Positions 1-20,000 of a stretch of 20,000 nt of DNA are shown here, piece by piece. A model generated the notes under the pieces. That model made no database searches and was not told the DNA's origin. It was given only the letters and a program-made list of their open reading frames with translations. Source of the DNA: Bilabrum cf. latius (Eukaryota); contig OZ237759.1 in the NCBI GenBank assembly GCA_965178125.1, forward strand, positions 917,085-937,084, read 5' to 3'. Every line of letters begins with the position of its first letter. Position 1 is the stretch's first letter. A program made the translations under genes and the position numbers.

Positions 1-1797
1 GCCCACTCGCATCGTGCCGCCGTACTGGCAAACCCTTTCCCGAGTCGGTTTGCGGCTGTATCTGCTGCTGGTGGTGGTTCTGCTGCCGCAGCAGGCCCTA
101 GCCCGTCTTCACGCGGAATGTCGTCGTCTCTGCTGTCGAGCTATGAGCGGCTGTCCCAAGCCGTGTCAGTCGACCCAATTCTTGGCCCCATTGACATTGC
201 CCGGGCTCGCCGCGCAACGATGGCAAGCCTTTCATGCTTGCAGTCCTCGGATAACCAGGCCGTCAGCCCGGCAAAAGTGCCAACGGACGCCCAGATCCTG
301 CTTGAGTTTTTAGCCATGGACGTGCCAACTGCATGCGGGTGGACCTGGTGCGAGAGCAGTGACGCTTCTAGTGGATTGGCGCGCCCAACCATACCCTTGG
401 CGAGATGCCCGAAGAGCATTGGCATTTGCCAGCCCACCCGCTTGTCGGACAAACCCATGCTCGATGACTCCTACCACGAGCAAGAGCTGCTCGGGTCAGT
501 GGCAGGTGCACGGCTCTTGGAGATAGAGGGTCGGCTTCGGCGGGTGTCGCTGGCACGCTGCTTGCAGACGAATGCACTGATCAACGGAGCGCCTCTTGCT
601 CCGTCGTTGGCCGCCACAGGGCTGTTGTCCGACTAGGCTGCTGCCGACGTGTTCGGGGGAACTGCCTCTCGTCCAAGCGGGGGTGCATCATGCACGGGGC
701 TGCCACTTGCATCTAAATTTCGAGACCCTGGCTGGCAGTCCATCGTGCAGGTGACTTGGCCCGTCCTCGAGGTGCGAGTACACCAGCACAACGAGTGGGC
801 TGCGGCCCACGAGGCACTGGCAGCCCGCCAGGGCAGCCTGCTCTTGTTTCACGGCACCTCACTGGAGGCCGCCCACTCTGTTATGCAGAATGGGCTGCGG
901 AGCATGAGCGGGACAGCGCACGAGAAAACCGGGGCCGTGCACGGGGACGGCATATACCTGGCTGCACGCCCCCTCATTGCGCTACAGTATGCGAGAGGGC
1001 CGGGCATAGATACAATGGCAAGCATAGAATCAGCATCGACAAGCGATGGCTTGCCTGCGAGGGATTCTACCCGGAAGCGCTGCACTACCTGGGGTCCCCA
1101 TGCATACAGCAGCACAGCTGTTGGTGCTGCACTGGGCGGGGCACCACAAGCAGCAAGTGCACCAAGGGAAGGCTCGTCCCATGGGCCGGCCTCTGGGCGT
1201 GATTCGCTACTACAGAGCCGATGGATGCGCTGCGTATTCGCAGTAGAGGTCGTGCCGGGCACCACGTTGGGATCGGGCGCGCCGCTACACCAAGTGGCCG
1301 GGGAGTCCTCCGCACAGACACAGCTGCCAGGCCTCAAGGCGCCAGACAGGTGTGTACTCGGGACATCAGGTGGTGTGTACGTTCTCAAGGAGCCCCGCCG
1401 TGCGAGAGTCACGCATCTGCTGGTGTTCCACGGCGGCGAGGCGGATGGACCACGGGCCATGACGCACACACAGGTGCGGCAGGTACCGGTAAAATTGCAA
1501 TTTTACCGGTTCGCGGCGACTTAGATAGCAAGCCATGCTGAGCACAAGGATTGTAATGTCGCCACAACCACAGTGGACGTGGTTCAACGCACTAGGGTGC
1601 CAAGAAAGCAGGGCAAGCGGGAGCAAAATGGAGCTCGAAGTGGCAAGCCATCAATGGGTGTTGCAGCCTCAAGCAGACAATACACTGTGGGCCAAGGCAT
1701 AAGTGCCGCTGTGTAGGATCTCGGTATGGACCCTATCAGTGCTGTGGCTATCACAATTGCTATCCTCGCCCTGGCGTTGGTATGGCTTGGTATTTGA
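1..1797 (+). CDS. PARP16-like (PARP6/8/16 clade) mono-ADP-ribosyltransferase with C-terminal tail anchor; 5'-partial; reads through TAG at 634, 1522 and 1714
   Basis: Frame 1 is open from base 1 to TGA 1795-1797 except for three TAGs. Catalytic motifs LFHGTSLEAAHSVMQNGL and HGDGIYLA...ALQYA are present. N-terminal AHSHRAAVLANPFPSRF resembles the PARP16 SYKRDSVLRPFP segment as I recall it. Read-through yields a C-terminal hydrophobic helix (PISAVAITIAILALALVWLGI*), like tail-anchored PARP16. Confidence 0.8.
1485..1510. repeat. Perfect 26-bp palindrome ACCGGTAAAATTGCAATTTTACCGGT
   Basis: The sequence equals its own reverse complement. It lies within a possible 42-nt GT..AG segment (1483-1524). 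Confidence 0.95.
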
Positions 1798-2349
1798 TAC
1801 CAAATTAAATGCATTTCCGCCCACCTGCCACGGCCATAAACTTGCTTATATTGCTATAAGTGTGATTCCTGTGTTTGGTCGTGAAGCACGGCGGGTGAAC
1901 CTAGAGTGCTACCAAAGCCAGATCGGTTGGTTCAACGCCGAACTTATTAAAGTCATGATTCAGATTAAGCGGACATCCAGCATGGCCATGCAAACCGCAT
2001 CCTCGTACGAGTGATCGCCACCTTTGTGACGGGCATTTGCAATATGATATTTTTAGTAAACAATCAGCACGTCACAATGCTATGCACGGTCGATCAGCAC
2101 ATACGGGCATACACACCCCATAGACCAACCGGGGGTTATATACAGTGTGAGATACGGTATCATGACAGAGTTTGGCTTATTGGTTCAGCCGTTTGTGTCG
2201 CGGAATCGCTACGCTGTCCTGATATTGCGTTTGAGATGACCCCGACGTGCTCGTTCAATTTGCTTGCCATCCGTACCGTTGTGCGTAGACAAGCGCTCGT
2301 ACTGCCGATATATTTCATAATGTCTATTGTTTTCCGCAGAGCAAGCACA

Positions 2350-5300
2350 ATGGCTGATCCCTCGAACTAGTTGCGAAAGCAGCGACAAATGGCTGCCATC
2401 GCTGTTGAATCCAAGGATGCCGAAGAACGCAAAGAAGACGCAATGCTCCCTAGCGAACGGCCAGATGATTGGAAAGAAGATGAAAACATGGTGAGATCCT
2501 CAGGCGACTCCCGTAGTTATGTTTGTTTTCTATTTTGTTGCGTGACGGCCACGTTCGTGTTCTTGTGGCCACGTCGAAATCGCAGGCAGAGGAAGACCGG
2601 CTGCTGAAAGAGCGGCTTGAGACTGCGCTTGATGTGCTTCTGGATGCGGGCGCATCTATTCCCCTGCGGACTGCTGCGCTTCGCATACTCAGATCGGAGG
2701 TCAGGTCCTCCACCTCAAGCATGACGGCAGTGCCGAAGCCTTTGAAGTACTTGGCCCCATTTTACGAGCGAATTAAGTCCAGCTTCCTATCAATCGATGG
2801 CCCTCGACTTGGTGAGCACAGCTTCGCGCTAGGCAGCGACGAGGACCCCGTAGCGGCAGCAAAGCAGGCAGCTCTGGTCGTTGATGGCGAGGCTTGGGAG
2901 CCCGGGTCCTCCAAGGCCGAATCGGGGGGTCAGGCTGCATCGGGGACAGGTGCCGATGCCTCTAGTGATGAAAAGAAGGGGTCATCCAAGTCTGGCCCCG
3001 GCAAGAAGGCGCCCAAGGGGGCAGCCTCGGTGCAGGAGGCCCTCAAGGAGCCCATTGAGGGCGTCACCGAGACGCAGTTCCGTAGGTCCTTCGCTGACCT
3101 GCTGTCCGTCCTGGCCATGGTGGGTGGGCGGGAAAACAGAGAGTGTCTGCGGTTCAAGATGCTCGGTCACCCCGCGGACGTGGGTCACTGGGGCCACGAG
3201 CACACCCGTGCGCTGGCCGGGGAGATCGCGCATGAGTACCAGGACAGGCTGCAGAAAGCCGAGCAGCAGATGGAGGACGGGGGGGGTGAAGTACCCTCGG
3301 ACATCGATGTGTCCAGCCTGGTGGACGCCAGCGACCTGCTGTCCCTCGCAGCCCGCATCGTGCCGTACAACATGGCGCACAATGCCGAGGCTGAGGCTGT
3401 GGACCTGCTCCTCGAGACGGGGCGGCTCAAGACCCTGCCCTCTTCCGGTTTCATCGACAAGCGGAACGTTGCTAGGGTGTGTTTGTACCTAGTGCGGTGC
3501 GCTGACTATACCGGTGACGAGGAGGAGCGCATCGAGATCCTCTCGGTGGCATATGCCCTTTACCTGCAGTAGGCCAGGCACGCAGATGCCATGCGAGTCG
3601 CCCTGCGCATGGCCGACAAGGGCCGGGTGCTGCGCGCATTCCGGGCGTGCCGGGACAAGGGCGTTCGTCTTCAACTCGGCTTTCTGCTCGGCCAGCACGG
3701 CTTCCGTGCCGTCGGCCACGGCGCGGACGAGGACGAGGACGACGTGGAGGAGCCGGACATCGGTGTCATCGGCGAGGGCGACGATGAGCTGGGCGGCAAG
3801 GGCTCTGCGCAAGCCAGGATGTCTGACCAAGGAGAACCCCCGGCAGCGGTGCCGCTGACCATCTCGCTGAGCAAGACGGAGAGCCTGACCTTCGGTGCAG
3901 GCGTGCTGGACGACGAGCAGGCAGGCGAGCTGGAGGACGACGTGAAGGACGCTATCGGGAACTGCATGCGGCACAAGCACTACCGGGCGCTGGCACAAGA
4001 GATGGGCGTCGACGAGCCAAAGAGCTCGGAGCAGGTGTACAAGACAAAACTTACGGATGAGTCGCGCCTTGCCACCCGAGGCAGGGAGGAACAGGTGCGC
4101 CTGGACAGCGCCCGCGGCAATCTGGCTGCTTCCTACGTGAGCGGGTTCGTGAATCTTTCTCTGGGTAAGGACAAGGTCATCACGCAGAAGGACGAGCACG
4201 GGCGCGAGTGGTGGCAGAGACAGAAGGGCAACGGCATGTCTGCAGCTGCCGCTGGGCACGCGCTGCTGCACCTGTGGGACTACGAGGCCTTGAACGAGGC
4301 CGAGCGGTTCACCAATGCCACCGATGCAGAGGTGCGAGCTGGAGGCGTGCTGGGCTACGGCATCATCCCTTGCTCCATCGCGAGCGAGGATGACGCCAGC
4401 ATCGGGATGCTCGATGAGTACATCGCTGGCGAAGCAGCGGCTGGGAAGAGCCACGCCGAACGATGCGCTGCCCTGCAAGCTCTCGGTCTCGCGTATGCTG
4501 GCACCGGCAGGATGGATGTCGCAGAGATGCTTATCCCATACGTAGAAGACCTTGGCCCCGACATGAAGAACAAGCTAGATTGCGATCTGGTCTGCAACGC
4601 GGCCTTCTCCCTGGGCATGGTGATGGCAGGCACCGCTGACGAGGACGCCACCATTGCACTGCAATCCATCCTGGTAGAGCCCCCGGAGCCGCTGCTGGAG
4701 CACCCTCTCCGGAGGCACCTGGCTGTTGCGCTCGGGTTGGTGTACATGCAGCGAGGAGTAGCGGCCGAGGACGCGCTGGAGATCATGGCTGCCGCTGGAG
4801 AGGAGTCCCCGCTCGGACGCGAGGCTGCACTGCTTCTCCGAGCCTGTGCATTTGCGGGCACCGGCGATGTCCTCCAGGTGCAGCGCATGCTGCATGCTTG
4901 CGCCGAGCACCCCATGAAGGATCGGCTTGCAGCCGTGGCGAAGATGAAGAAGGAGCGCAAGGAGAACCAGGCCGAGCAACAGGCTAGGCAAGCGCAGCGG
5001 GGCGCAAGTTCAGGGGCTGGTGCCGCTGCAGGGGGTGCCGCCGGTGGCGGGCAGGATGACGACGATGAGGAGATGCAGCGTGAGGAGGAGAAGGCTGCAG
5101 ACCCAGCGAAGTATGCATTCTAGACGGTGGCTGCCCTTTGCCTGGGTGTCATTACGATGGGGGAGGGGCTCGGCACTCAGATGCTTGGACGGGTGGTGGA
5201 TCACCTGCTTCAGTACGGCGATCCTGCGGTCAGGAGGGGCGTCCCTCTTGCTCTCGCCATGGCGTATGCTTCCAATGCGGACTACGGCGTGATCGACACG

Positions 5301-6035
5301 CTCTCCAAGCTGTCCCATGACGGCGATGCAGGCACGGCACGGAATGCAGTCCTCGCCATGGGCATCATTGGAGCAGGCACCAACAACAGCAGGCTGGCCG
5401 GCATGCTGCGGCAATTGTCTGTCTTCAACAAGCAAGATGGAGAGTCGCTTTTCATCGTCCGGCTGGCGCAGGGGCTGCTGGCCATGGGACAGGGCCTCGT
5501 CACCGTGAACCCATTCCACAGCGACGGCATGCTGCTCAAGACGCCGGCAGCTGGTGCGCTGCTAGCTGTGGCCCTTTGCGGGCTGGATCTGGACCGTACC
5601 GTGTTGGCGCAGCACCACCTGCAGCTGTTCAACATTGTCCCGGCCATCTCTCCCAGGATGGTGGTGACCCTGGACGCCAGAGATGCCGACGAGATGGTGC
5701 GCGTGGATGTGCGTGTTGGTACTGCGGTGGAGACTGTGGGGCAGGCGGGCCGCCCCAAGACAATCACTGGGTTCCAGACCCACCAGACCCCAGTGCTCCT
5801 GGCTGCCAAGGACCGCGCCGAGATCGCCCCCACAGACCAGTGGGTGCCCCTCACCTCAACGCTGGAAGGTGTGGTGCTGCTGAGGCGGGTAGAGGACGCG
5901 TCCATGGATGACGCGGTGAGGGCAGCTGGCGTGGGTGAAGTGGATGAGGACCAGCGGAAGGCGGTGGAGAACAAGGGTAGCCCCAAGCCGAAGCGGAAGG
6001 CTAGTGTGGCTACTGGTACCGATCCGTACGACTGA
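2350..6035 (+). CDS. RPN1: 26S proteasome regulatory subunit RPN1/PSMD2, join(2350..2490,2586..6035), about 1196 aa; TAG read as sense at 3570 and 5121 (and 2368 if the first ATG is used; alternative start 2389)
   Basis: ORFs 2523-3572, 3591-5123 and 5127-6035 share one frame and are separated only by TAG. RPN1 motifs occur throughout: SMTAVPKPLKYL, WGHEHTRALAGEIA, PYNMAHNAEAEAVDLLLE, GAGTNNSRLAGMLRQL, VRVGTAVETVGQAGRPKTITGFQTHQTPVLL. Ends TGA 6033-6035. Confidence 0.95.
2491..2585 (+). other. Spliceosomal intron (95 nt, phase 0) in RPN1
   Basis: ATG|GTGAGA donor, T-rich interior and CGCAG| acceptor. Splicing joins ...EDENM to AEEDRLLKERLE, matching the ELSEEDKQL-type N-terminal motif of RPN1. 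Confidence 0.85.
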
Positions 6036-6430
6036 GTCTATGTGATGACTTGCTGCTATGCCACATAGATCTAGCCCTACATCCAAATATTATTTTTTTT
6101 TATCGCGGGTATCGGTTGTTAATGGATCAATGCAGCGTTTCACGTGGAACTTACGTAGATGGAGAGAGGGTAGGCCGAGGCCGAAAAAGAATCCGGATCT
6201 ACGAAGATCTTAAAGTTAAATAGCCTGAGGCCCGAGAACAGCCCGCGTTTTGCATGCCACTAGGTCCAGAATATCTGGTTAAGGTCATATGCATGGAGAG
6301 CTAAGAACAGCAGTATGACAAAAGTACAAACATCCACATCAGGATTATGGGCGGCTGCTGCAGACTAAAATCCTTATGTCGACTTGGACAATCAGATTAT
6401 ATCGCATTTCAGATTTGAATCTCCATTCAT

Positions 6431-6640
6431 GTCCCTATCCATGGCCCTCTCGTCCGATCCACCAAACACCACACTGGCTGGCCCCATCCATAGCCTCTTC
6501 CACGTCCCAATCCATGGCCCTCTCGTCCGATCCACCAAACACCACACTGGCTGGCCCCATCCATAGCCTCTTCCACGTCCCCATCCATGCCCCTCTCGTC
6601 CGATCCACCAAACACCACACTGGCTGGCCCCATCCATAGC
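6431..6640. repeat. 73-bp telomere-adjacent tandem repeat, about 2.9 copies
   Basis: TCCATG(G/C)CCCTCTCGTCCGATCCACCAAACACCACACTGGCTGGCCCCATCCATAGC recurs at 6438, 6511 and 6584 (period 73). The third copy is truncated just before the telomeric tract. Confidence 0.95.
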
Positions 6641-6643
6641 TAC

Positions 6644-7186
6644 GGGTTAGGGTTAGGGTTAGGGTTAGGGTTAGGGTTAGGGTTAGGGTTAGGGTTAGGG
6701 TTAGGGTTAGGGTTAGGGTTAGGGTTAGGGTTAGGGTTAGGGTTAGGGTTAGGGTTAGGGTTAGGGTTAGGGTTAGGGTTAGGGTTAGGGTTAGGGTTAG
6801 GGTTAGGGTTAGGGTTAGGGTTAGGGTTAGGGTTAGGGTTAGGGTTAGGGTTAGGGTTAGGGTTAGGGTTAGGGTTAGGGTTAGGGTTAGGGTTAGGGTT
6901 AGGGTTAGGGTTAGGGTTAGGGTTAGGGTTAGGGTTAGGGTTAGGGTTAGGGTTAGGGTTAGGGTTAGGGTTAGGGTTAGGGTTAGGGTTAGGGTTAGGG
7001 TTAGGGTTAGGGTTAGGGTTAGGGTTAGGGTTAGGGTTAGGGTTAGGGTTAGGGTTAGGGTTAGGGTTAGGGTTAGGGTTAGGGTTAGGGTTAGGGTTAG
7101 GGTTAGGGTTAGGGTTAGGGTTAGGGTTAGGGTTAGGGTTAGGGTTAGGGTTAGGGTTAGGGTTAGGGTTAGGGTTAGGGTTAGGG
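6644..7186 (+). repeat. Telomeric repeat tract (TTAGGG)90, internal in this window
   Basis: Uninterrupted TTAGGG from 6647 to 7186 (540 bp). The G-rich strand is +, the orientation of a right-hand chromosome end. Confidence 0.99.
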
Positions 7187-7246
7187 TATCTAATATAAAG
7201 TCAGGGACAGGGTCGGGGAAAAAATATTTTCATCTTCAATATTTGT

Positions 7247-8477
7247 CGAAAAACGACGTGCTACGATCTCGGTAACTACAGGTGATATGAAGACCGTTCA
7301 AACTGCATCGGGACGGCCTGGGGGCACAACATGGGCCAAATGTTCCCCAGGTTCCGTTCTGGCCGCGCGGCGCCGATATGGGTGTATGAAGAATTTCACA
7401 CCGAAAAACGACGTGCTACGATCTCGGCAACTACAGGTGATATGAAGACCGTTCAAACTGCATCGGGACGGCCTGGGGGCACAACATGGGCCAAATGTTC
7501 CCCAGGTTCCGTTCTGGCCGCGCGGCGCCGATATGGGTGTATGAAGAATTTCACACCGAAAAACGACGTGCTACGATCTCGGCAACTACAGGTGATATGA
7601 AGACCGTTCAAACTGCATCGGGACGGCCTGGGGGCACAACATGGGCCAAATGTTCCCCAGGTTCCGTTCTGGCCGCGCGGCGCCGATATGGGTGTATGAA
7701 GAATTTCACACCGAAAAACGACGTGCTACGATCTCGGCAACTACAGGTGATATGAAGACCGTTCAAACTGCATCGGGACGGCCTGGGGGCACAACATGGG
7801 CCAAATGTTCCCCAGGTTCCGTTCTGGCCGCGCGGCGCCGATATGGGTGTATGAAGAATTTCACACCGAAAAACGACGTGCTACGATCTCGGCAACTACA
7901 GGTGATATGAAGACCGTTCAAACTGCATCGGGACGGCCTGGGGGCACAACATGGGCCAAATGTTCCCCAGGTTCCGTTCTGGCCGCGCGGCGCCGATATG
8001 GGTGTATGAAGAATTTCACACCGAAAAACGACGTGCTACGATCTCGGCAACTACAGGTGATATGAAGACCGTTCAAACTGCATCGGGACGGCCTGGGGGC
8101 ACAACATGGGCCAAATGTTCCCCAGGTTCCGTTCTGGCCGCGCGGCGCCGATATGGGTGTATGAAGAATTTCACACCGAAAAACGACGTGCTACGATCTC
8201 GGCAACTACAGGTGATATGAAGACCGTTCAAACTGCATCGGGACGGCCTGGGGGCACAACATGGGCCAAATGTTCCCCAGGTTCCGTTCTGGCCGCGCGG
8301 CGCCGATATGGGTGTATGAAGAATTTCACACCGAAAAACGACGTGCTACGATCTCGGCAACTACAGGTGATATGAAGACCGTTCAAACTGCATCGGGACG
8401 GCCTGGGAGCACAACATGGGCCAAATGTTCCCCAGGTTCCGTTCTGGCCGCGCGGCGCCGATATGGGTGTATGAAGA
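7247..8477. repeat. 155-bp tandem satellite, about 7.9 near-identical copies
   Basis: The unit starts CGAAAAACGACGTGCTACGATCTCGG at 7247, 7402, ... 8332. Identical 89-aa ORFs recur every 155 bp. I noticed single substitutions only in the first copy (GGTAACT) and the last (CCTGGGAGC). Confidence 0.98.
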
Positions 8478-8729
8478 TTTGCATGTTTATTCAATATGCA
8501 TGGTTTATCTGTCAATTGTAGAATGGGTATGGTGTACATGACAGTTGTATTTGCTGTGTGGATTGCTTTGATCTAAGGTATTAACTGGTTGACACGTCAA
8601 GACTCAACAGAATGCCTCCCGGCTCCTAATGCTGCGTCCGAATGGGTCAATGGCAGACACTTTGGCAAACTCCTCTCACAAGCTGGCCCAGCTGCCACTG
8701 ACCTCAATTGCCGTCCCCCTGCCTGCCTC

Positions 8730-10268
8730 TCACTCGTCACCGAAAGCTGCTAGGAGCGCTTCCACAGCGTCGACGTCTGCCGCATTGAGATCTCCTTTCG
8801 CCGTCTTCTCGAGGGCCGTCATCAGGTTTGCGAACATTTCCAACTCGCGGTCCCTCTCTTCAATTGTTGCCTCCACGTCCTCGCGCATGTCTTTGAGAGT
8901 CCGGCTGACGCCCATCGCGCTGTCATCGCAGGCAGCAAGGATGCGGTCCACCAGGTGCCGCTGCTAGTCGGTGAAGGCGGTGTCCTCCATTCCACTGTTG
9001 TTGTCAGAGTCGTCTTGCTGGTTCTGGCCGTCGTTTTCTTCTTCCTCAACCAGCTGCTCCTCATCCTCCTCGTCCTGCTGCTCAAACCCCATTGGAGCGT
9101 CGTCCTCGTCCTGCTCTCCAGCTGCGTCTGCGCGGTACCGACCACCGATGTCCTCTTCATCTTCGTCAGAGTCCTGACGAGGCAGTGATGCTGCTGCTCC
9201 ACTCCTTGCGCCACTTGCTCCCCTTTTCTCCTGTTCAACGGCGCGGCGTGCTCCTCTGCCATTGCCTGGTTGGACGACTGCCGGTCGCTCGGGCTGCCTC
9301 TATGCCCGCGGCTCAGCCTCAGCCGCCTTCTTGCCCTTTGACTCTGCCGGTTGTGCACCCTTGCCCTTCGCCTTGCCCTTCGACTTGCCCTTCGACTTGC
9401 CCTTCGACTTGCCCGCGGCCTTGGTCCTGGCCTTTGCCTTGGCCTTTGCCTTGGCCTTTCTCTCGGCCTCCGCCTCTCGCTTGGCTCTGAGAAGATCGTT
9501 GTTCAGTCGCTCGGTCGATGAGTCGCTGGACTCTGAGCCGTCTGTATCCGGCTCACCCCGTGCTTTCCGGGCCGTGTAGGCCCTCTGGCCCTTCACATTG
9601 TTGTCGGGGTTGTCCTCGTCCTCATCGTCGTCGTCGTCCATGGCACTCCGTTTGCCCTTCCGAGCACGGGATGCCCCACTCGGCGAGGTAGCAGCGGCTC
9701 CCGAAGAGCCACCTTGATCTCCTGCTGCAGCCCCGGCAGAGTCCTTGACTGCCATGTCGAACACCTCTATGAATACAGCCTCCATGCCTCCGCGTGCACG
9801 TACAGAGGCCGTCCCAGCTCCATTATCGCAGATGAACTTGAGCACGTTCTTGAAGCGCCTGCGCAAGCCGTCTAAGCCTGCCTTGAAGAATGGGTTTGTG
9901 GTGGTGGAGTAGCCACACTCGCGCAGAGCCGTGAGAAGCTGCTTCATCTTCCGAAAGCCTGGCCAGTCGGAGCTGCTGGCTGACGCGTCTGGGCACAGGC
10001 GGCTGTTCAGCGCTGTGAGCACGCCAAATGGCACCTCAAACTCATCCAGCGCCAGCATGGCATCCACGCAGGCCCTGATGCCCTCCCTCTTGGTCCCTTC
10101 GTAGTGCTCCGAAGATCCGCAGAGCAGCCCGCAATCCTGGTGGAGGCCCACGAGGGAGATAAGCAGGATCTGCTTGGCCGCGGAAGTGTCGACGCCTGAA
10201 GCCAGGGAGGCCACGACAGGGCGAGATGCCTTGGTGTGCTTGGCGCTGTAGCTCTTTGCGGCGGCCAT
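8730..10268 (-). CDS. Hypothetical protein, about 512 aa (TAG read as sense at 9300-9302 and 8964-8966): N-terminal globular region, Lys/Ala/Gly-rich basic repeats, acidic tracts, C-terminal helical segment
   Basis: ORFs 9300-10415 and 8730-8951 share a frame. The sequence between them is open apart from the two TAGs and encodes a D/E/Q-rich segment. The likely start is ATG 10268 (MAAAKSYSAK) and the end is TGA 8732-8730. Confidence 0.75.
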
Positions 10269-10506
10269 AGTACTCTGCGGTGCCAGGGGAACACGGGTGA
10301 GGTCACGAACAGGTGCTTGGATGCGACAGGGAACACGGGCACGAGACCCAGGGTTACTCCTGGACAAGCTCGAGGGCAAAAAAAAAAAAAAAGGCACCCA
10401 CATAACCCCGCGCACTCGGTCTCAGACCTGGGACCCATGATGTTGGGTCGATCCCCCAGTCGTGGGGGGAACGGACCCCAGCCCAGAAAAAAAATTAAAA
10501 AAAGAT

Positions 10507-10586
10507 CGCCCCAACGGGAATCGAACCTCGGGGGTAGGCCGGGGTGCGATTACCAACCGTACGCAATACCACTACACCACCACAGC
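10507..10586 (-). ncRNA. tRNA-like / Pol III type-2 element (degenerate tRNA, possible GGT anticodon loop) followed by oligo-T
   Basis: The minus strand reads GCTGTGG-TGGTGTAGTGGTA...TTGGTAA...GAGGTTCGATTCCCG-TTGGGGCG. A box TGGTGTAGTGG (10579-10569), B box GGTTCGATTCC (10527-10517), T7 run just downstream. The stems pair poorly, so it is probably not a canonical tRNA. Confidence 0.55.
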
Positions 10587-11160
10587 AACCCACGCGAAAC
10601 CGAAAAAAAATTACAGATTCGCATCAAAAGTGCACGCAACTTGCACTTGTCACGCCGAAACCTACCCGTTCACCCAACGAGCAGCGCGAAATCAGAAACA
10701 CTCATATTGCGCTCCTTGTATTCAATTGCAGAGGCGCATACTTGGCATATAGCTACTATAGCATATTGTGCATACAACCCTAAAGCAAACGTGAGTCAAA
10801 TCGATGGGGTATGCGTGGGGATTGCCTTGCGCAATGCGCTTGCTGCAACGTGGTTCAGACGTTTGCCTCAATTGCGCGACGGCAAGCACTCGTTGGAACT
10901 AATCTCGCGCATATTATCAAATAATATAACATACTGCAAACAATTGCGCGGCGATATATAGGCTGCGCGCCCAATGCTCACTTTGCTTGCGGTAGGTGTG
11001 CTGCGACAACATTTGTGGTGGCCCGGATCAGGTTGCGGAACCTGATGCGCGGCACCGCCGTGACGAGTGCGCCACCAGGGAACAACGCATCGTACCATCA
11101 TACTAATCACATCCCAAGTATATTATATATCCTTGTGGCATCTCTGTCCGCAGTCTGGTC

Positions 11161-14100
11161 ATGGCGCAGTCCACGTACGACGCCACCAAGCATGTGAAGG
11201 CTCTCGATTACCTCCGGGCCTTCCTGGACCGCCGCGCGAAGGGCTACGCCCAGAACCCGCATCGCGTGCGCATCGGAGTCCCAGGGCCACTTCAACCAGG
11301 AGGTGCCGCCCTGCCTGGCCCGCCGGCCGGCGAGGCGCAGGCCCAGATCCCGGCCCAGGTGGGGCCAGCGCCAGGCGGTCATGCCGCCGGGGGGGGCGAT
11401 GCGGCAGGCCTGCCGGCCCCCGTCCCAGCCATCGGCGAGCATGCTCCGGAGCCCCAGCACCAGCAGCAAGAGGGCGCCCAACAACCACCACCGGGTGCAG
11501 CTCTTGCTGCTGGCCAGCAGGCGATGCCCGCCGCCCCGCCCCAGCACCCCGCTGGTCCGGGTGCCAACCTGCCGGTCCCAGGAGGCCTGCAGCCCGAGCC
11601 GCCAGCTGGCGATGCCGACGCCTTCCTCCCGATCCCGGAGCCCCAGCAGGAGCCTGCAGGTGGGCCAGCCGGCGTCGGTCCGGCCCCTCCAGCAGCCGAG
11701 CAGCAGCCAGCTGCCCAGGCTGCCCAGCACCAACTCGTCCCTGGGCCCGTGCCTCTCGCCGAGGTGCCCGTCCTGGCCGGGGTCGGCGCAGGGGAGGACG
11801 CGATGGAGGACGACGAGCCCCCAGAAGCGGTCCAGGCCATCTTCCTCGGGCGCCAAGCCGCCCACGCGGCCACCCAGGCAGCTCGGCAGGCCATGGTCTG
11901 GGATGCTCAGGGCCAGCAACCGCTCTTCGGGGCAGAGGGAGGAGCGCCCGAGCTGCCCATCCCCGGAGTCGTGTTCGCTGCCGGTGCAGAGGCAGCCGGC
12001 GCCCAAGGCGGTGGCGCAGGCCCAGACGCCGGAGGGGAGGTCGGTGCGCCACCCGTGCAGGCGTGGAACCTGGTCGTCGGCGACCCTGGGGGAGCGCATG
12101 GAGAGGAGGCCCTGGCCGTCAACCTCCCGCCCGAGTACCGGTTCGGCATGCACGAGGCGACAGACGACCTCGCGCAGCACCCCATGCTGGCCTACCACAT
12201 ATGGGAGGTGGACGACGAGGCGGTGCAGGCCCTGCAGGGCCTGCTGACCTGCGTTGGCAGGCAGGAGCTGCCTCCCGAGGTGTGGAGGGCGCTCGCACCT
12301 CCAGTGATGGAGACGGTGACCATGCAAGGCATGCGGCGCTGGTGGGCGTACCAGAGGCGCGCCGTTGTCGTCGTGGACAGCCTCCTGCATGCCGAGACTG
12401 ATGCTGCCGGCGTGGAGCAGCGCGCGCAGAGGCGCGGCCGCTTTCTCGTGCAGCTCGTTGGCTGGACTGACATCACCAAGATGCTGGAGAGCGAAGACCT
12501 GAACGAGGAAGGGGCTGCCTTCATTCGGAGCAAGCTGGCTTCGGTGGCGGTCAGCTTCTGGCCGTCTCCGATGCTGGCGGAGCCCGGGCTGCACAGCCAC
12601 AAGCTCTCTCCGCTCCGCACGGAGTGGGATCACTACATCGAGTACAACCGCGTGGACGAGACGGTCTTTGACGCGGTCGGGCTCTCCGAGCAGCCTCCAG
12701 CGTTCATGTACGAGGACGAGGACGAGGACGAGATGGAGGAGGGGCCGGCGGCGCAGCCGGCTGGGGCGGAGGAGCATGCAGAGGGCGACGAAGATGCCGG
12801 GTATGAGGCTGGGGAAGGCGAGTGGGGTAGGGAAGGCCAGTGGGACTCGGACGGAGACCAAGGTGGCGACGAGGAAGCGGATGGTGGAGATCCTGCCGCG
12901 GAGGCTTTCGGAGCTGCGGATGCCGAGCTGGAAGGCGAGCCTGAAGAGGAGCAGGAGGCCGCCCCGGATGTGCTGCGGAACCCACCAGACGGCATGGCGG
13001 CCCCCGTGGCGGTCCGCTCTGAGCTCTCCGATGTCGACGCCATGGAGGTGGTCGGGATCCTATCCGGCGCCGGAGCCTCCCAGGAGGTGCAGACCAGCCC
13101 GTTCATGCTGGCGCTTGGGGGGCCGGTGTCACGGCTCCTGCTGGACGAGCCGCTGGACCAAGCCTACGGCCTCATCGACGTGCTGATTGGAGCCGACTCG
13201 GCGACGCAGGATGGGGTCCTCTGCGGGCGCAGGGGTCTGCAGAGGGACGGGGGGCAGATCAGGGTGCAGTCGGCCACGCAGCAGCACCAGCGCACCGAGG
13301 TGGACACGAGCGGCTCATCCAGGCCCCGGCTCGGCTACAGCATCGTCTTCAACCGGCACATCCCCACGTAGGAGCGGGACAATCCCGGCACGCCGAGGAG
13401 TCACGGCGCGTACTACTCACCCCGCATCGACGTCGCGTACCTTGGACCGATGGGGATCCAGAACATGGGCGTGGATTCGGAGCCGCTGCGGCTGCACCGC
13501 ATCCATCACGCTCTCCCTGCACCAGCAGGGGACCACGTGACCGTCCAATCCCTGACATCGGACGTTCGAAGTGCAGCTCGTCGCTTCCACCAGAGCAGCG
13601 AGGAGGTTGGGGTGCTAGAGGAAGCTGAAGCGATCCTGGAGGGAAGCACCGGCACAGTGCGAGGCAATGCCAGGGCCGTGAAATCCGCACGTGCCACGCT
13701 CCGCAAGTACCTCACGATGATGCCCAAACAGCGCGGGGTCGGATCTGGCGACGTCTCGGTCTCTGTCCTCCTGGCGGGGGCGGCTGAGGTGCGAGTCGTG
13801 CTACCGGAGGGCGGTGTGGCTCGGGTGTTTGGCGTTGCTCACGCAGGGTCTGAGGAAGAGCAGGCCTCCTTGCGCACACTCGCGAGGCGCTGGAACATCC
13901 GGCGACTGGAGGGAATGCGCCTCGTTGGAACGCCGTTCGACCAGGCCGTGCAGTCGCTCCTGATTGGCATCGCAGGTGCCATCAACTACGTGAGAGAGAA
14001 GGAGGGGTACCGCGGGCCCGAGTTCATGGTGCAGTCGACCCCGAGGACTGCCACGACGGCGCAGGGACTCTCCGCATCGTACGCGATTGTAGCAACCGAC

Positions 14101-17100
14101 TCGCCCGTCGGTGTCTCTCGCGGAAGCACCCACACCGAGACTTTGAGTCCTGGAGACCGTCACATGGGCGTGCGTGGGACTGCTGAGCCTGATGGCGGGC
14201 ATCGCATCAGGCCCGGGTACTTCCTGTGCGAAGTGCTCCGGGTTCTGAGCGAGGACGCGGCCCTGCATCCCACCCAGGTCAGCCATCTGCCCCACAGGCT
14301 GAGATATCCTGACGGACTGAAGATCCAAGGGGTCCTGGCGTGCTCGATCTACCGAATCCTGGTCGTCGGGGGCCAGAACCAGGCGGCGGTTGCTGTGATG
14401 CGATCCCTGATGCTGCGACAGGCTCCGGCCGCTGGTGAGCCTGAGGAGGACCCTCCGGACCACGGCGGGCACCCTGTAGTGTTCGTCGACCCTCTTGCCG
14501 CCGGGAGGGACGCCATCCGCATGGCGACGGAGCTCGGGCAACATCGACCAGAGATCCAGTGCCAGGACCCCGTGTTGCTCTCCATGGACCTGGGCTTCAT
14601 GGCAGGTGGCGGCGACATGCACGCTGCGTTTCCGAGCGTGCTGGGCCTGCGTCATGCCATGGCACTTGCGGGTGATGCCGTGGCCGACATCTCCTCCGTA
14701 CCGGGCTTCGGACAGGTGGGGAGCTAGTTCGTCTTCCCAATGCAAGTGGATGAAGAGAACGTGAACTGCCTGCTCATGAGCCCATCTCTGGGCAGTGTGC
14801 AGTTCAGGGCTCGTGCCAGAGGCGATACGCAAGCTGCCATGACTAAGCATGACTTTCAGCACGTGGCTGAGCTGGTATCGCAGGCCACCCGCGAGCGGGA
14901 CGACGAGTTTGTTCGTAAGCTCTTGCCCGCGATGCTGAGCGTATCTCACGGGGTGCAGATGTACGTCGAGCAGGCGTTCCGCTCCACGAGGCTCAGCGGC
15001 GACAGTCACCAACGGCTTGGGTCTCGGCTGTATGGTGAGCTGGAGCGATGCAGGCAGCAGGTTCCAAAGGTGGGGCGGGCTGCTGCGGCCACCATGGCAA
15101 GGGTTGCGCACGACGAGGCCACCGAGATCGCGTGTCGCAGGTTGCAGGCTATAGGTGACGCTCGAGCATCGCTTCGCGTCGAATTCAGCATGGCAGGGCC
15201 CGGTCTTCTGATGGGACTAGCAATGGCGCTGGGACTTGAGGACGGACACGCCAGTCTCGTGGATGCCCTGGCGGAAGGAACGTCGACAGTTCGAGCGCCC
15301 TTCTTTGACACAGTTGCTGCCATGGTGCAGCGGGAGGTGGCGCATGCCGTCACGCGGGACTTGGAGGAGGCGGTCCGAGGGGCCATGGCTACGGCGGCCA
15401 GTATCGAGATAAAGGCTATGGCGGCTGAGCAGGTGTCGGACGGTTTAGCTGTTCAGCAGGCAGTCGCAGGGGAGCTGCGCATGCTTGCGCTGGATGTGTC
15501 GCAGATGGTGGCCCCCACCCAGACTGGGCAAGCCATGACCCGGTCCATCATGGAGTCCGTCCTTCCGCGTCCCGAGGCCAGACTGCGGCAGGCCATCTGG
15601 CATGTGGCGGATGGCACCATTGCGGACCGACGGCGAACGGTGGAGAAGGATCCACGCAACTGGAACGGCCAGTGCCGCGTAGCCCAGGCAACTCTGGCTA
15701 TGGTGCTTCAGGTTGTGACCAGGGGCGGGGTGAGGGAGATCACGGATCCGGAGGCCCGCTCTCCAGAGGTGCTTCCGAAGCTGCTGCACGGCGTAGCGTC
15801 ACTCATCGTGGTGGGTGTGCAGTCGGCCTCGCTCATTGCCTGCACGGGGTAGCGACCACTCGCGGTAACACGGGCTGACAGCCGGCGCCACGTTGTCGGA
15901 TTCGCCGCTGGGACTGAGTCTCCCAAGGACTGCGCCTTGCTGGATCTGAGGTCGTTCCTGCAGAGCGGCAGTGACGATCCCTGCGTGGAGCTCGGCCGGG
16001 TCATTGGTCGAATGCTGCACCCGGCCTTGGTGTCTGCCGTGCTGATCAACGCACCAGGCCCTCTACTGACTGCTGTAGTGCGAATCAGCCCAGGGAGGCT
16101 TGCGTCCGAGGTGGTCATGCAGCTCGAGAATACCGTGGCTCTGACGCAGAGCATTGAGCAGCAGGCCAAAGCGGCCACCTTACTGGGAGCTCCAGCCTCG
16201 CTGATGCACGAGACCATGAGAAACCTGGGAGTAACGCTCGAGGACATGGTCTCCGCGCTCCAGAAGGCGTACGAGGACGTTCCCTTGGCGGCAATTGGTG
16301 CATTTGCGGCCATGGTGAGAGGAGGCAAGAACGAGAAGTTTCCGCATGGGACGGCGATTCCGGTGAACACCCCTGGTGTGCCATTTCCGCTAGCGCTGTG
16401 TCTTACCGGCTAGGATGACGACGGACGGTTCAGGCTAGGGTCGCTCCCGCTGGGCGGAGTGCCGGATACCATAAGGGTGGATGGGACCCAGTCTGCCTCC
16501 CCACTGCAGCTGATGCTTGCTGGCAGGGCGGCCACCGTGCTACACGACAACCTGCTCCAGATTGCTATCGGCACGGTCCGTCGGCAGGGCCGTTTGGTCA
16601 AGGAAGAGGAACTCGACTTGGTTCGCAGGGGCACGCACGCAGGGGAGCGCTTGACGCTGGCGCTGCCGGGTTCGACGCAAGAGGCTGCCCGTGTCGACAG
16701 CCTCACCCGAGCTGCAGTCTTGGCAGCCATGCGGCGGATCTAGAAGTTCAGATATATGAGCACTTCCGTCTACGACAGGACCAGGCGACTGCTTCGTGCA
16801 CGGTAGGTGGAGCCTTGGGATGCGCTTGACGTGGAGGATATGCGGAGGCCCTGGCGGGACTAGTTCCGCTTGCCATTGGAGGAAGGTACCATCGGTGAGA
16901 GTACTGCAGCGGTACTTAGGCGTGGAAGCTTCGAGACCAGACGGGCTAGCCTTGCGCTGATGGGCATCGCCACGGTGGCGGGTCGGGCTTGCCAGGAGGA
17001 GGCATAGCAGCCCGTAGTGCGAGCAACACGTTTGGTAGTAGGGTGGTTGAGGTCCGATGTCTCTGACGCAATGGTCCTGGACGATGGAAGCGAACAGCGT

Positions 17101-18147
17101 CAAGCTGCCGTCAACGCTGCTGCAGGGGCCGAGATGCTCCTCACGGAACTGTGTGGTGTCGAGACCGTGAAGCTCTTGGCCAAGGTGCAAGCGCTCATGG
17201 ACCGATCCGAGGCTGCACATCTGCGCCACAGAGACGAAATTATGCATGGAGATCTGCCGGAGACGAACAGCCGGCAAGAGCGCGTAGGTTTTCGTATCGG
17301 CTGTGCAATCGCGGCAAGTAGAGGGCAAGAGGCTTTGGAGAAGCTGAGGAGACTCTCATCGCTGGTCCGGATGGCTCGACGGGTGGTGAAGACAGCTCGC
17401 AATGCTTTGCACGGCGGTGCAAGTTGTCACGCAGTGCTTGCCATGGTTCGTGCGTCCATTGGACGGGTCCGAGGCCTACGAAATGCCGTGGAGCGAGCGC
17501 GTGAGTTGGCTGGAGCTGCCGAGGTCGAAGGGGAAGGAGCAGCGGAGCGGCTGGGGAGACTGGGTGCTCTCGGATGGCAGGCCATCCAAGCGGAGCGAGT
17601 TCGTCTGGTGGTGCAAGCAGCTAGAGGAGCCGCTCGCTTGTACAGGCGTAGTCGGACATATCCAGTTGGATCCGCCAGATAGAAGGTCTGCCTGCGAGGT
17701 ACGCTGCTTCTGACGGGGTTTGTCAGATCCTAGCGACATCCCTTTGCAGTAGAGCCCAGTCCTTTGGCACGGACGCTTGCTGGGTGGAGCGTGGTGCAGG
17801 AGTGGAAGCATGTGTTGCGCCAGCACTCTTTGTTGATGGGCCTGGGTGTGGGACTTGGCGATGAAGACGAGCGGGTGCAGTAGGTGTGCCAGACGGTGTT
17901 TCGTGCCAACGACGATCCTATGGAGGTAGAATTGGCCGAGGGGCCCGGCAACTGGAGTCCTGCCGAGATCAGTGCATTTAAAGCAGCGGATGTCTGGGGA
18001 GAGGACCAAGGGAAGATGGCCCTGTCCATTGGAAAGGTCTAGGGCTTGCTCGCATCATGGCGGAGAACAGCGAAGCATCTTCAAGAGACCGCTCAAGCTG
18101 ATGGCCGCGGAAAGGGCAGGATGCAGCTCTAGCACATGTTCGGTTGA
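11161..18147 (+). CDS. Giant hypothetical protein, 2328 aa, with 13 in-frame TAG codons; Pro/Gln/Ala/Gly-rich N-terminus, acidic linker, long C-terminal body of unrecognised family
   Basis: ORFs starting 11161, 13450, 14740, 15937, 16459 and 17017 are all in frame 1. Manual translation of the gaps and the 3' extension shows only TAG (13369, 14725, 15850, 16411, 16741, 16804, 16861, 17005, 17680, 17731, 17881, 18040, 18130) until TGA 18145-18147. Confidence 0.85.
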
Positions 18148-18264
18148 TCCTGTCAGGTGTCTAGACGTGTTGAAGTAGATACTGTTCTTGTAGATCCAAA
18201 TCTATACAACGAGAAAAAAAAATCATATCAATAAGCATGCTCGAAATGTCAAGAAATCCAGAAG

Positions 18265-20000
18265 GACCCACACCACGCCCATCCTACAACCGCGATGAGA
18301 CATCCACACACCGGAATGAGACCTGCCACATTGAGGTCACATCTGGTGGATTAGAATGGTCCGTGTCGGGCATCCTTAGCTCGCAGATGCGCCATTGCTG
18401 CCGCAGGATAGGAATGAAGGAGCTTGGCCCCGAAAACGTGGTGGATTTTTTTCTCCCATTTCAGTAAACCAAGTACGCTAAATGATTAAATACAATAATA
18501 CAAGCTCACGAATTAGCTAATCGGATTTGAAATTCCCCCACAAAGGGGAAAGGTTAGGAATAGGGTTTATGTCATAGACCGGTGAGATTGAGACTTGGTT
18601 GAAAGATTTGAAACTCCGAGTTATTCCAGGGAACATCGTACATAGGTGCATAGACATCATGTGGAAAGTGTAAGGCATTGGAAATGTTTCCCGGCTGAGA
18701 AAACATGGATCAAAGATTCGGGTTAGGGCTCGTATTTGTGTGGCGTTACACTTGGTAGGGAACAAGCAATGTTGTGTCGTCATGATACACTTGGGACAAT
18801 GTCAAGTACCATCAAGCACAAGTGTATGCGATTTGAAGACATTGCATCCATAAGTTGCCGCGATATTGAAGATCAAAGTTCTGAAGGTTAGGGTTAGGGT
18901 TAGGGTTTTCCCTGAGGGGCGTGCATTAGCTGTGAATGAGATTTTTTTGATTTCTAGGGTTCATTTGCACTTTGAATCATCATGTATTATGTGTGTGAAG
19001 TTTGGAGATTGGCTGACATACAGTTATTGAGCACTTGAGCAATACAAGTAGTTGCCTTTGCTCATCTGGTCGGCGCCACGCCCACAGTGACTGGGCGACT
19101 GGCGACCCACACCACGCCCATCCTACAACCGCGATGAGACATCCACACACCGGAATGAGACCTGCCACATTGAGGTCACATCTGGTGGATTAGAATGGTC
19201 CGTGTCGGGCATCCTTAGCTCGCAGATGCGCCATTGCTGCCGCAGGATAGGAATGAAGGAGCTTGGCCCCGAAAACGTGGTGGATTTTTTTCTCCCATTT
19301 CAGTAAACCAAGTACGCTAAATGATTAAATACAATAATACAAGCTCACGAATTAGCTAATCGGATTTGAAATTCCCCCACAAAGGGGAAAGGTTAGGAAT
19401 AGGGTTTATGTCATAGACCGGTGAGATTGAGACTTGGTTGAAAGATTTGAAACTCCGAGTTATTCCAGGGAACATCGTACATAGGTGCATAGACATCATG
19501 TGGAAAGTGTAAGGCATTGGAAATGTTTCCCGGCTGAGAAAACATGGATCAAAGATTCGGGTTAGGGCTCGTATTTGTGTGGCGTTACACTTGGTAGGGA
19601 ACAAGCAATGTTGTGTCGTCATGATACACTTGGGACAATGTCAAGTACCATCAAGCACAAGTGTATGCGATTTGAAGACATTGCATCCATAAGTTGCCGC
19701 GATATTGAAGATCAAAGTTCTGAAGGTTAGGGTTAGGGTTAGGGTTTTCCCTGAGGGGCGTGCATTAGCTGTGAATGAGATTTTTTTGATTTCTAGGGTT
19801 CATTTGCACTTTGAATCATCATGTATTATGTGTGTGAAGTTTGGAGATTGGCTGACATACAGTTATTGAGCACTTGAGCAATACAAGTAGTTGCCTTTGC
19901 TCATCTGGTCGGCGCCACGCCCACAGTGACTGGGCGACTGGCGACCCACACCACGCCCATCCTACAACCGCGATGAGACATCCACACACCGGAATGAGAC
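18265..20000. repeat. 839-bp tandem repeat (2 full copies plus the start of a third, running off the window) containing short telomere-like motifs
   Basis: GACCCACACCACGCCCATCC starts at 18265, 19104 and 19943. Identical ORFs occur at 18517 and 19356. Each unit has (TTAGGG)3 (18888-18905 and 19727-19744). Confidence 0.97.

Follow-up and report, generated by a model that had tools for sequence, protein, structure and literature searches.

Reading frames and codon usage of the window

We analyzed a 20,000-nucleotide stretch of contig OZ237759.1 (positions 917,085 to 937,084, forward strand; hereafter, the window), which carries a PARP-like gene, a gene predicted to encode the proteasome subunit RPN1, a minus-strand gene and a giant orphan gene, together with an internal array of TTAGGG repeats (Table 1). 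All four genes contain in-frame TAG codons, and we consider it highly probable that in the organism that carries them, a stramenopile related to Cafeteria, UAG has a sense meaning, most likely glutamine.

The frames were listed from stop to stop twice, once with the standard code and once allowing TAG as a sense codon, and were then translated and their codons counted. Under the standard code the window appears as many medium-sized open reading frames (ORFs), and with TAG as sense it appears as four long frames. The codon count, made over 4,664 codons of the four genes, gave 20 in-frame TAG, no TAA and four TGA, the latter all terminal, one at the end of each gene. These results agree with the initial annotation, an earlier reading of the same DNA, which had proposed that UAG is sense in all four genes, that none of them contains a frameshift or an internal TAA or TGA and that all end in TGA: the frames are open only with TAG as sense, and no frameshift was found across the codons counted. 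Its estimate of 20 to 21 TAGs stands for the 20 coding ones, and the possible third TAG of the RPN1 gene (2514) turned out to be intronic.

The chance of obtaining such frames was modeled from the rate of TGA plus TAA in the other five frames of each gene. In the giant gene, a frame without either codon had a probability of 4e-14; for RPN1 the value was 2e-8, for the minus-strand gene 7.5e-5 and for the PARP-like gene 3e-4. An ORF can contain up to 13 TAGs, and some of the TAGs lie inside conserved domains. As the initial annotation had noticed when it argued against a programmed readthrough motif, the codons 3' of the TAGs are diverse, and their flanks have no visible motif in common. Since the flanks vary, we rejected a shared motif of the methylation or readthrough type, and programmed readthrough, with one leaky stop and a conserved downstream context, does not describe ORFs with that many TAGs.

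The G+C content of the window is 59% from base counts and reaches about 0.60-0.71 in coding parts (1-kb bins), with a third-position G+C of 0.62-0.75. This composition and the presence of a (TTAGGG)n array match the GC-rich host with TTAGGG repeats that had been described at first. If UAG is counted among the glutamine codons, TAG represents 20 of the 238 glutamine codons of the four genes (about 8%).

Table 1. Features of the window, with positions counted from its first nucleotide.
Feature	Position	Strand	Remarks
PARP-like frame and gene	1..1797	+	5' end beyond the window; 3 TAGs (634-636, 1522-1524, 1714-1716); TGA 1795-1797
RPN1 exon 1	2350..2490	+	candidate ATGs 2350 and 2389; in-frame TAG 2368-2370 between them
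RPN1 frame	2484..6035	+	TAG at 2514, 3570, 5121
RPN1 intron (predicted)	2491..2585	+	95 nt, GTGAG..CGCAG, phase 0; contains TAG 2514-2516
RPN1 exon 2	2586..6035	+	TAGs 3570-3572 (aa 363) and 5121-5123 (aa 880); TGA 6033-6035
Tandem repeat	6431..6640		73 bp x 2.9
TTAGGG array	6644..7187		(TTAGGG) x 90.7, perfect, internal
Tandem repeat	7247..8477		155 bp x 7.9, 99% matches
Minus-strand frame	8730..10421	-	2 TAGs
Minus-strand gene	8730..10268	-	512 codons; ATG 10268-10266; TAGs 9302-9300, 8966-8964; TGA (TCA on + at 8730-8732)
tRNA-like element	10504..10588	-	85 nt
Giant-gene 5'-UTR intron	10791..11153	+	363 nt, GTGAGT..CCGCAG; ATG 11161 is 7 nt past the acceptor
Giant-gene frame	11107..18147	+	13 TAGs
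Giant gene	11161..18147	+	2,328 codons plus TGA 18145-18147; 13 in-frame TAGs: 13369, 14725, 15850, 16411, 16741, 16804, 16861, 17005, 17680, 17731, 17881, 18040, 18130
TAG replaced by Gln in a relative	15850..15852	+	Q in P0125 (306 aa, 99% identical, ENA contig); P0125 ends just before TAG 16411
Low-GC repeat	18265..20000		45-47% G+C; 839-bp spacing

RPN1 and the amino acid read at UAG

The second frame is identified by its domains and homologues as RPN1 / PSMD2, the 26S proteasome regulatory subunit N1. Three Pfam families match it above their cutoffs, PF17781 RPN1_RPN2_N (6e-80), PF01851 PC_rep (1.6e-12) and PF18051 RPN1_C (1e-23), the last one at residues 1085-1135, downstream of both coding TAGs. 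We collected 516 homologues at E <= 0.001, and no RPN1 relatives were found in JGI metagenome contigs or GTDB genome contigs.

No ATG precedes the conserved N-terminal motif of RPN1 in the frame of exon 2, and it is at this motif that the alignment with homologues begins. Exon 1 ends with an acidic stretch that runs on into this motif at the opening of exon 2, and the predicted splice joining the two exons was deduced from frame and homology. TAG 2514 is non-coding because it lies inside this GT..AG intron, and TAG 2368 is coding only if ATG 2350 is the start. We also considered whether TAGs 3570 and 5121 could be hidden in introns; this was ruled out, the alignment with homologues being colinear, one to one, across both.

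We then read the columns of these two TAGs in an alignment of the window RPN1 with 120 homologues. At aa 880, 119 of the 120 homologues have a glutamine. At aa 363, glutamine is the plurality residue (47 of 120), followed by histidine (42), phenylalanine (12) and others (19).

Proteins from close relatives point in the same direction. P0005 (99% identical to the window RPN1) and P0006 (85-89%), both from public run assemblies, have a glutamine at both RPN1 TAG sites, and with the giant-gene fragment P0125 (Table 1), glutamine was found at three of the three window TAG sites that are covered by a relative's protein. Six fragments, all from one ENA contig, stop immediately short of window TAGs, P0131 before 13369, P0129 before 14725, P0125 before 16411, P0127 before 16741, P0126 before 17680 and P0128 before 18040; evidently, the public gene calls of the relatives treated TAG as terminating and allowed GTG as a start. 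The reverse situation is suggested by the ends of the RPN1 relatives. P0005 ends directly before CAG 5622 of the window and P0006 before CAG 5178, and the chance that both ends precede a glutamine is about 0.0015 given that glutamine makes up 3.9% of the residues. These protein calls suggest that the relatives carry TAG at window sites 5178 and 5622, and we infer that close strains exchange TAG and CAG both ways, which is the behavior expected of synonymous codons. Because the TAGs fall on glutamine columns and relatives swap TAG with glutamine codons, the amino acid at UAG is most likely glutamine.

P0005, P0006 and P0125-P0131 are fragments running from GTG or ATG to TAG, evidently the product of prokaryote-style gene callers with standard stops. 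As the callers used the standard stop set, current databases contain the proteome of this lineage in pieces.

The giant orphan gene

Most of the TAGs lie in the giant gene, whose own frame has no internal TGA while its other two sense frames have 44 and 34. No Pfam family was found in its product. When 1.84 billion representatives were searched exhaustively with HMMER, only five matches came up, all fragments 97-100% identical, and a word-based search of 5.8 billion proteins gave four matches of the same 97-100% identical class.

The TAGs are unevenly distributed along this gene, with three in the first ~1,580 codons and ten in the last ~580, and the G+C content drops from 0.71 to 0.60 as TAG density climbs. 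The rise of TAGs towards the 3' end could reflect a C-to-T drift at CAG under weaker GC pressure.

The TAG-bearing DNA in public sequencing runs

Eleven public runs from six studies contain part of 8700-18200. The Logan contigs of four of them (X1, X5, X6 and X8) were compared over this interval, which holds the minus-strand and giant genes; 1-8699, with the TAGs of the PARP-like gene and RPN1 and the RPN1 intron, was set aside because of its long telomeric and tandem repeats. Contigs from X1 match 15487-18125 with one difference and 11965-15409 with five, and those from X5, whose study and organism label differ from those of X1, match 15487-18200 with one difference and 11494-15409 with 22, all of them gap-free. 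At least 10 of the 11 TAGs in 15850-18130 are reproduced in each of these two runs (the shorter span of X1 includes 10). Absence of the TAGs from raw reads would have spoken against the initial annotation, but short-read contigs from two studies carry TAGs of the giant gene. Since these contigs reproduce the TAG-bearing DNA, the TAGs are real DNA.

One run, X6, resembles RNA. One of its contigs joins position 10790 to 11154, skipping 363 nt with GT..AG ends that correspond to the giant-gene 5'-UTR intron, and its depth is patchy, gene by gene, and zero or near zero over intergenic and intron parts (10285-11235). Contigs from X6 span TAGs 15850, 17680 and 17731 with two differences each, these being counts whose positions fall outside the 40 of 249 rows listed. 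The counts equal the numbers of amino-acid differences of the ENA-contig fragments over the same spans, and within these spans the fragments have a TAG-to-Q difference at 15850 and none at 17680 or 17731.

Alternative explanations

Several observations weigh against reading UAG as a glutamine codon. The sample comprises four genes, the statement that no gene ends in TAG rests on these four, and two of the four are without homologues outside the lineage. Column 363 of RPN1 is variable, with its Q, H and F shares given above, and the presence of CAG or TAG in the relatives was deduced from protein calls. No run of the 11 is recorded as RNA, X6 being classed as 'probably DNA'. ARAGORN with default settings found no tRNA in the window. 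The giant-gene frame is disrupted over ~15410-15530 in the ENA contig of the sister strain, which exits and rejoins the window frame within ~40 codons, other frames of the window being matched by the end of P0130 and the beginning of P0125. The contigs of X1 and X5 both break at 15410-15486, coinciding with this disruption, which could reflect allelic indels, an assembly error or weak constraint on the giant gene. Finally, 10 of the 13 giant-gene TAGs lie within the last 580 codons, the last one five codons before TGA, and this crowding of TAGs near gene ends leaves some room, to which we give a low probability, for context-dependent termination.

The alternative that survives best, although we consider it improbable, is that UAA and UAG both mean glutamine (the UAR code, NCBI table 6 type) and that UAA is rare in these genes because of their GC richness. 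UAA and UAG nearly always have the same meaning, and UAR-to-Gln has arisen many times, as reported in the Discussion of PMC11687900; all four genes of the window end in TGA, none in TAA. However, CAA represents 52 of the 218 CAA plus CAG codons (24%), so that, if TAA were used in proportion to CAA, about six TAA would be expected beside the 20 TAG and none was seen (P = 0.004), and with the third-position G+C observed here a preference for TGA over TAA is unsurprising. TAA is thus probably not reassigned, and UAA has probably either kept its role as a stop or gone out of use, the four stops here all being TGA.

Slightly less probable still is an ambiguous UAG, meaning glutamine inside genes and still terminating in some contexts, for example near the 3' end. 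Stop codons of this kind are found in Condylostoma, in karyorelicts and, for UAA, in Blastocrithidia. Besides the 3' crowding in the giant gene, two of the three TAGs of the PARP-like gene fall in its last 91 codons, and the frame beyond TAG 1522 is too short to prove coding, its stop-free run not being significant alone when estimated from the stop rate of the gene's other five frames. Yet no gene ends at a TAG followed by clearly non-coding sequence, the giant-gene frame remains free of TGA and TAA through all ten 3' TAGs, and the PARP-like frame continues past its two late TAGs into a hydrophobic stretch of ~20 residues (1717-1797) that ends directly at TGA. In ambiguous codes such as these, moreover, the sense use of stop codons is depleted, not enriched, near the true stop.

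It is very improbable that the TAGs are untranslated, whether as assembly or sequencing errors, pseudogene lesions, sites of U-to-C RNA editing or leaky stops with programmed readthrough. In favor of this view, the region is rich in repeats and looks subtelomeric, two of its four genes are orphans confined to the lineage, the sister-strain frame is disrupted and the RNA evidence is incomplete. Against errors, the TAGs recur in contigs of two studies and in the gene calls of a third assembly. Against pseudogenes, neither frameshifts nor internal TAA or TGA occur in the codons counted, random single-base nonsense from the codons present should give ~61% TAG, so that 20 TAG out of 20 has P ~5e-5, and RPN1 is among the conserved core subunits of the proteasome. 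Readthrough does not account for 13 TAGs in varied contexts in one ORF. The sister-strain assembly, whose contig may be DNA or RNA, keeps most TAGs and has Q at one, which looks more like polymorphism than like systematic editing.

Placement of the organism

The best named RPN1 matches are from Cafeteria roenbergensis, with 43-46% identity and shared lineage-specific insertions. A quick IQ-TREE analysis was run on 31 of 121 sequences (named ones and the closest other matches), with the careful search unfinished and no other Bigyra included. In the tree, the window RPN1 groups with P0005 and P0006, and the sister of this group is the Cafeteria clade (SH-aLRT 99), so the placement by RPN1 phylogeny that had been suggested at the outset gave a grouping with Cafeteria roenbergensis. 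The path from the window to Cafeteria is 1.84 changes per site, with deviant composition flagged for these sequences, and this length indicates that the organism is not a close Cafeteria relative. As far as this evidence goes, the organism would be a stramenopile related to Cafeteria, with no finer placement. With its close relatives it would make up a clade of at least three sequence types with 85-99% RPN1 identity. The window is best explained as part of the nuclear genome of a heterotrophic stramenopile that is GC-rich and has few introns, with Cafeteria roenbergensis as its nearest named relative. The RPN1 of Cafeteria roenbergensis itself is complete, with N at 363 and Q at 880, and its protein composition is GC-rich like that of the window.

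Comparison with known genetic codes

Reassignment of UAG alone to glutamine is known from the fornicate Iotanema spirale, the ciliate Protocruzia tuzeti and two phyllopharyngean ciliate lineages, according to the Discussion of PMC11687900. As in the window, UAG means glutamine in these codes and UAA does not, UGA terminates, and the meanings of UAG and UAA are uncoupled; in contrast, their hosts are metamonads or ciliates, and the organism here is a GC-rich Cafeteria-related stramenopile. Reassignment of UAR to glutamine is described in the same part of that source for many ciliates, Ulvophyceae, Hexamita, Streblomastix strix and Amoeboaphelidium protococcarum. These lineages share with the window the amino acid and the one-step relation between CAG and TAG, but they use TAA as glutamine too, whereas TAA is absent here.

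Other changes of UAG alone include an uncultured rhizarian (leucine) and Scotinosphaera (serine), as listed in PMC11687900, and in Oligohymenophorea sp. PL0344 UAG means glutamate and UAA lysine (PMC10553269, in the part available). In these three, UAG is reassigned apart from UAA in the nuclear genome, as here, although to other amino acids than the glutamine supported in the window by the column at aa 880 and the three strain-level substitutions. In Blastocrithidia nonstop, Condylostoma and karyorelicts, as far as the available texts describe them, all three stops, or a codon that also terminates, are found in frame. Stop codons thus occur in frame within ordinary genes there and here, but in the window this applies to TAG alone, and each of the four genes closes with another codon, TGA.

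No change of the nuclear code, UAG reassignment included, was reported for stramenopiles or bicosoecids in the literature searched, subscription-only papers and supplements lying outside its scope. For Cafileria, PMC6723347 deals with the mitochondrial code only, and no stramenopile is named among the handful of UAG-only lineages in the Discussion of PMC11687900. The variant itself, UAG alone to glutamine, is known already, and what appears new is the lineage and the GC-rich setting. For the fuller claim, that this is the first nuclear code change in a stramenopile and that a clade of Cafeteria-related, GC-rich flagellates reads UAG alone as glutamine with TAG and CAG still exchanging, we see the chances as evenly balanced. 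The extension from four genes to a genome-wide reassignment, as worded in the initial annotation, is an extrapolation.

A code with UAG as glutamine and with UAA and UGA as stops is presumably of the NCBI table 15 type. By analogy with known cases, a tRNA-Gln(CUA) that arose from tRNA-Gln(CUG) through a single change in the anticodon would read UAG only, and eRF1 would have lost or weakened its recognition of UAG while keeping that of UGA (and UAA). C-to-T transitions at CAG could then have spread TAG through coding sequence, which agrees with the denser TAGs in the 3' third of the giant gene, where G+C is lower. Within the window, Rfam at gathering thresholds gave no match, and ARAGORN with relaxed settings made four low-score calls, none of them CUA: three are internal to coding sequence or have implausible introns, and one is tRNA-Thr(GGT)-like.

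Nuclear code changes are rare, and changes of UAG alone, in which UAG and UAA differ, are rarer still. If the reading of UAG as glutamine is true, the genome that underwent the change was GC-rich, a setting in which TAG is expected as a common stop, and this would be hard to reconcile with stop-codon capture after AT pressure has made stops rare. It would represent an independent origin in a GC-rich bacterivorous flagellate that is culturable or abundant in metagenomes, and its close strains would allow the turnover of TAG and CAG to be followed and the co-evolution of tRNA-Gln(CUA) and eRF1 to be tested directly. At a practical level, callers that use the standard code fragment such proteins, and the genes are mis-annotated and may pass for pseudogenes or bacterial ORFs.

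Other features of the locus

The PARP-like gene was recognized by a match to the PARP catalytic domain (PF00644 of Pfam, residues 259-332; E value of 5.4e-8 and score of 33 bits, the cutoff being 26.7), which is partial, covering profile positions 30-101 of 199. TAG 634 lies upstream of this domain in the same frame, with no intervening methionine. The frame has no match at E <= 0.01 among PDB sequences. Its hydrophobic C-terminal stretch resembles a tail anchor and may be one; human PARP16 is a tail-anchored protein of the endoplasmic reticulum.

The protein of the minus-strand gene has an acidic, Lys/Ala-rich, low-complexity middle part. No Pfam family was found in it, and one search gave no homologue, its candidate list being swamped by low-complexity words. 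The interval 8700-10284 is covered by many contigs at 85-95% identity, and a contig of run X1 matches the gene up to 9659 and then continues into TTAGGG repeats. These matches suggest that the minus-strand gene belongs to a multi-copy subtelomeric family, of which at least one copy may be truncated and telomere-capped.

The TTAGGG array lies between genes, the 73-bp repeat before it and the 155-bp tandem repeat after it. Its G-rich strand runs 5' to 3' rightwards, as at the right end of a chromosome. It could be a real interstitial telomere, left where an end was healed or fused, or the assembly may have joined a chromosome end to another piece.

A tRNA-like element is found between two divergently transcribed genes, with the T-arm motif GGTTCGATTCC and seven T directly 3' of it. 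ARAGORN identified it as the tRNA-Thr(GGT) mentioned above at relaxed thresholds only, and it was called neither by ARAGORN with default settings nor by Rfam. This element may be a tRNA gene that has degenerated, or else a Pol III element derived from a tRNA. Finally, the low-GC repeat at the right end of the window is present in at least two copies, and a third, from ~19943, leaves the window; each unit includes short TTAGGG-like runs.

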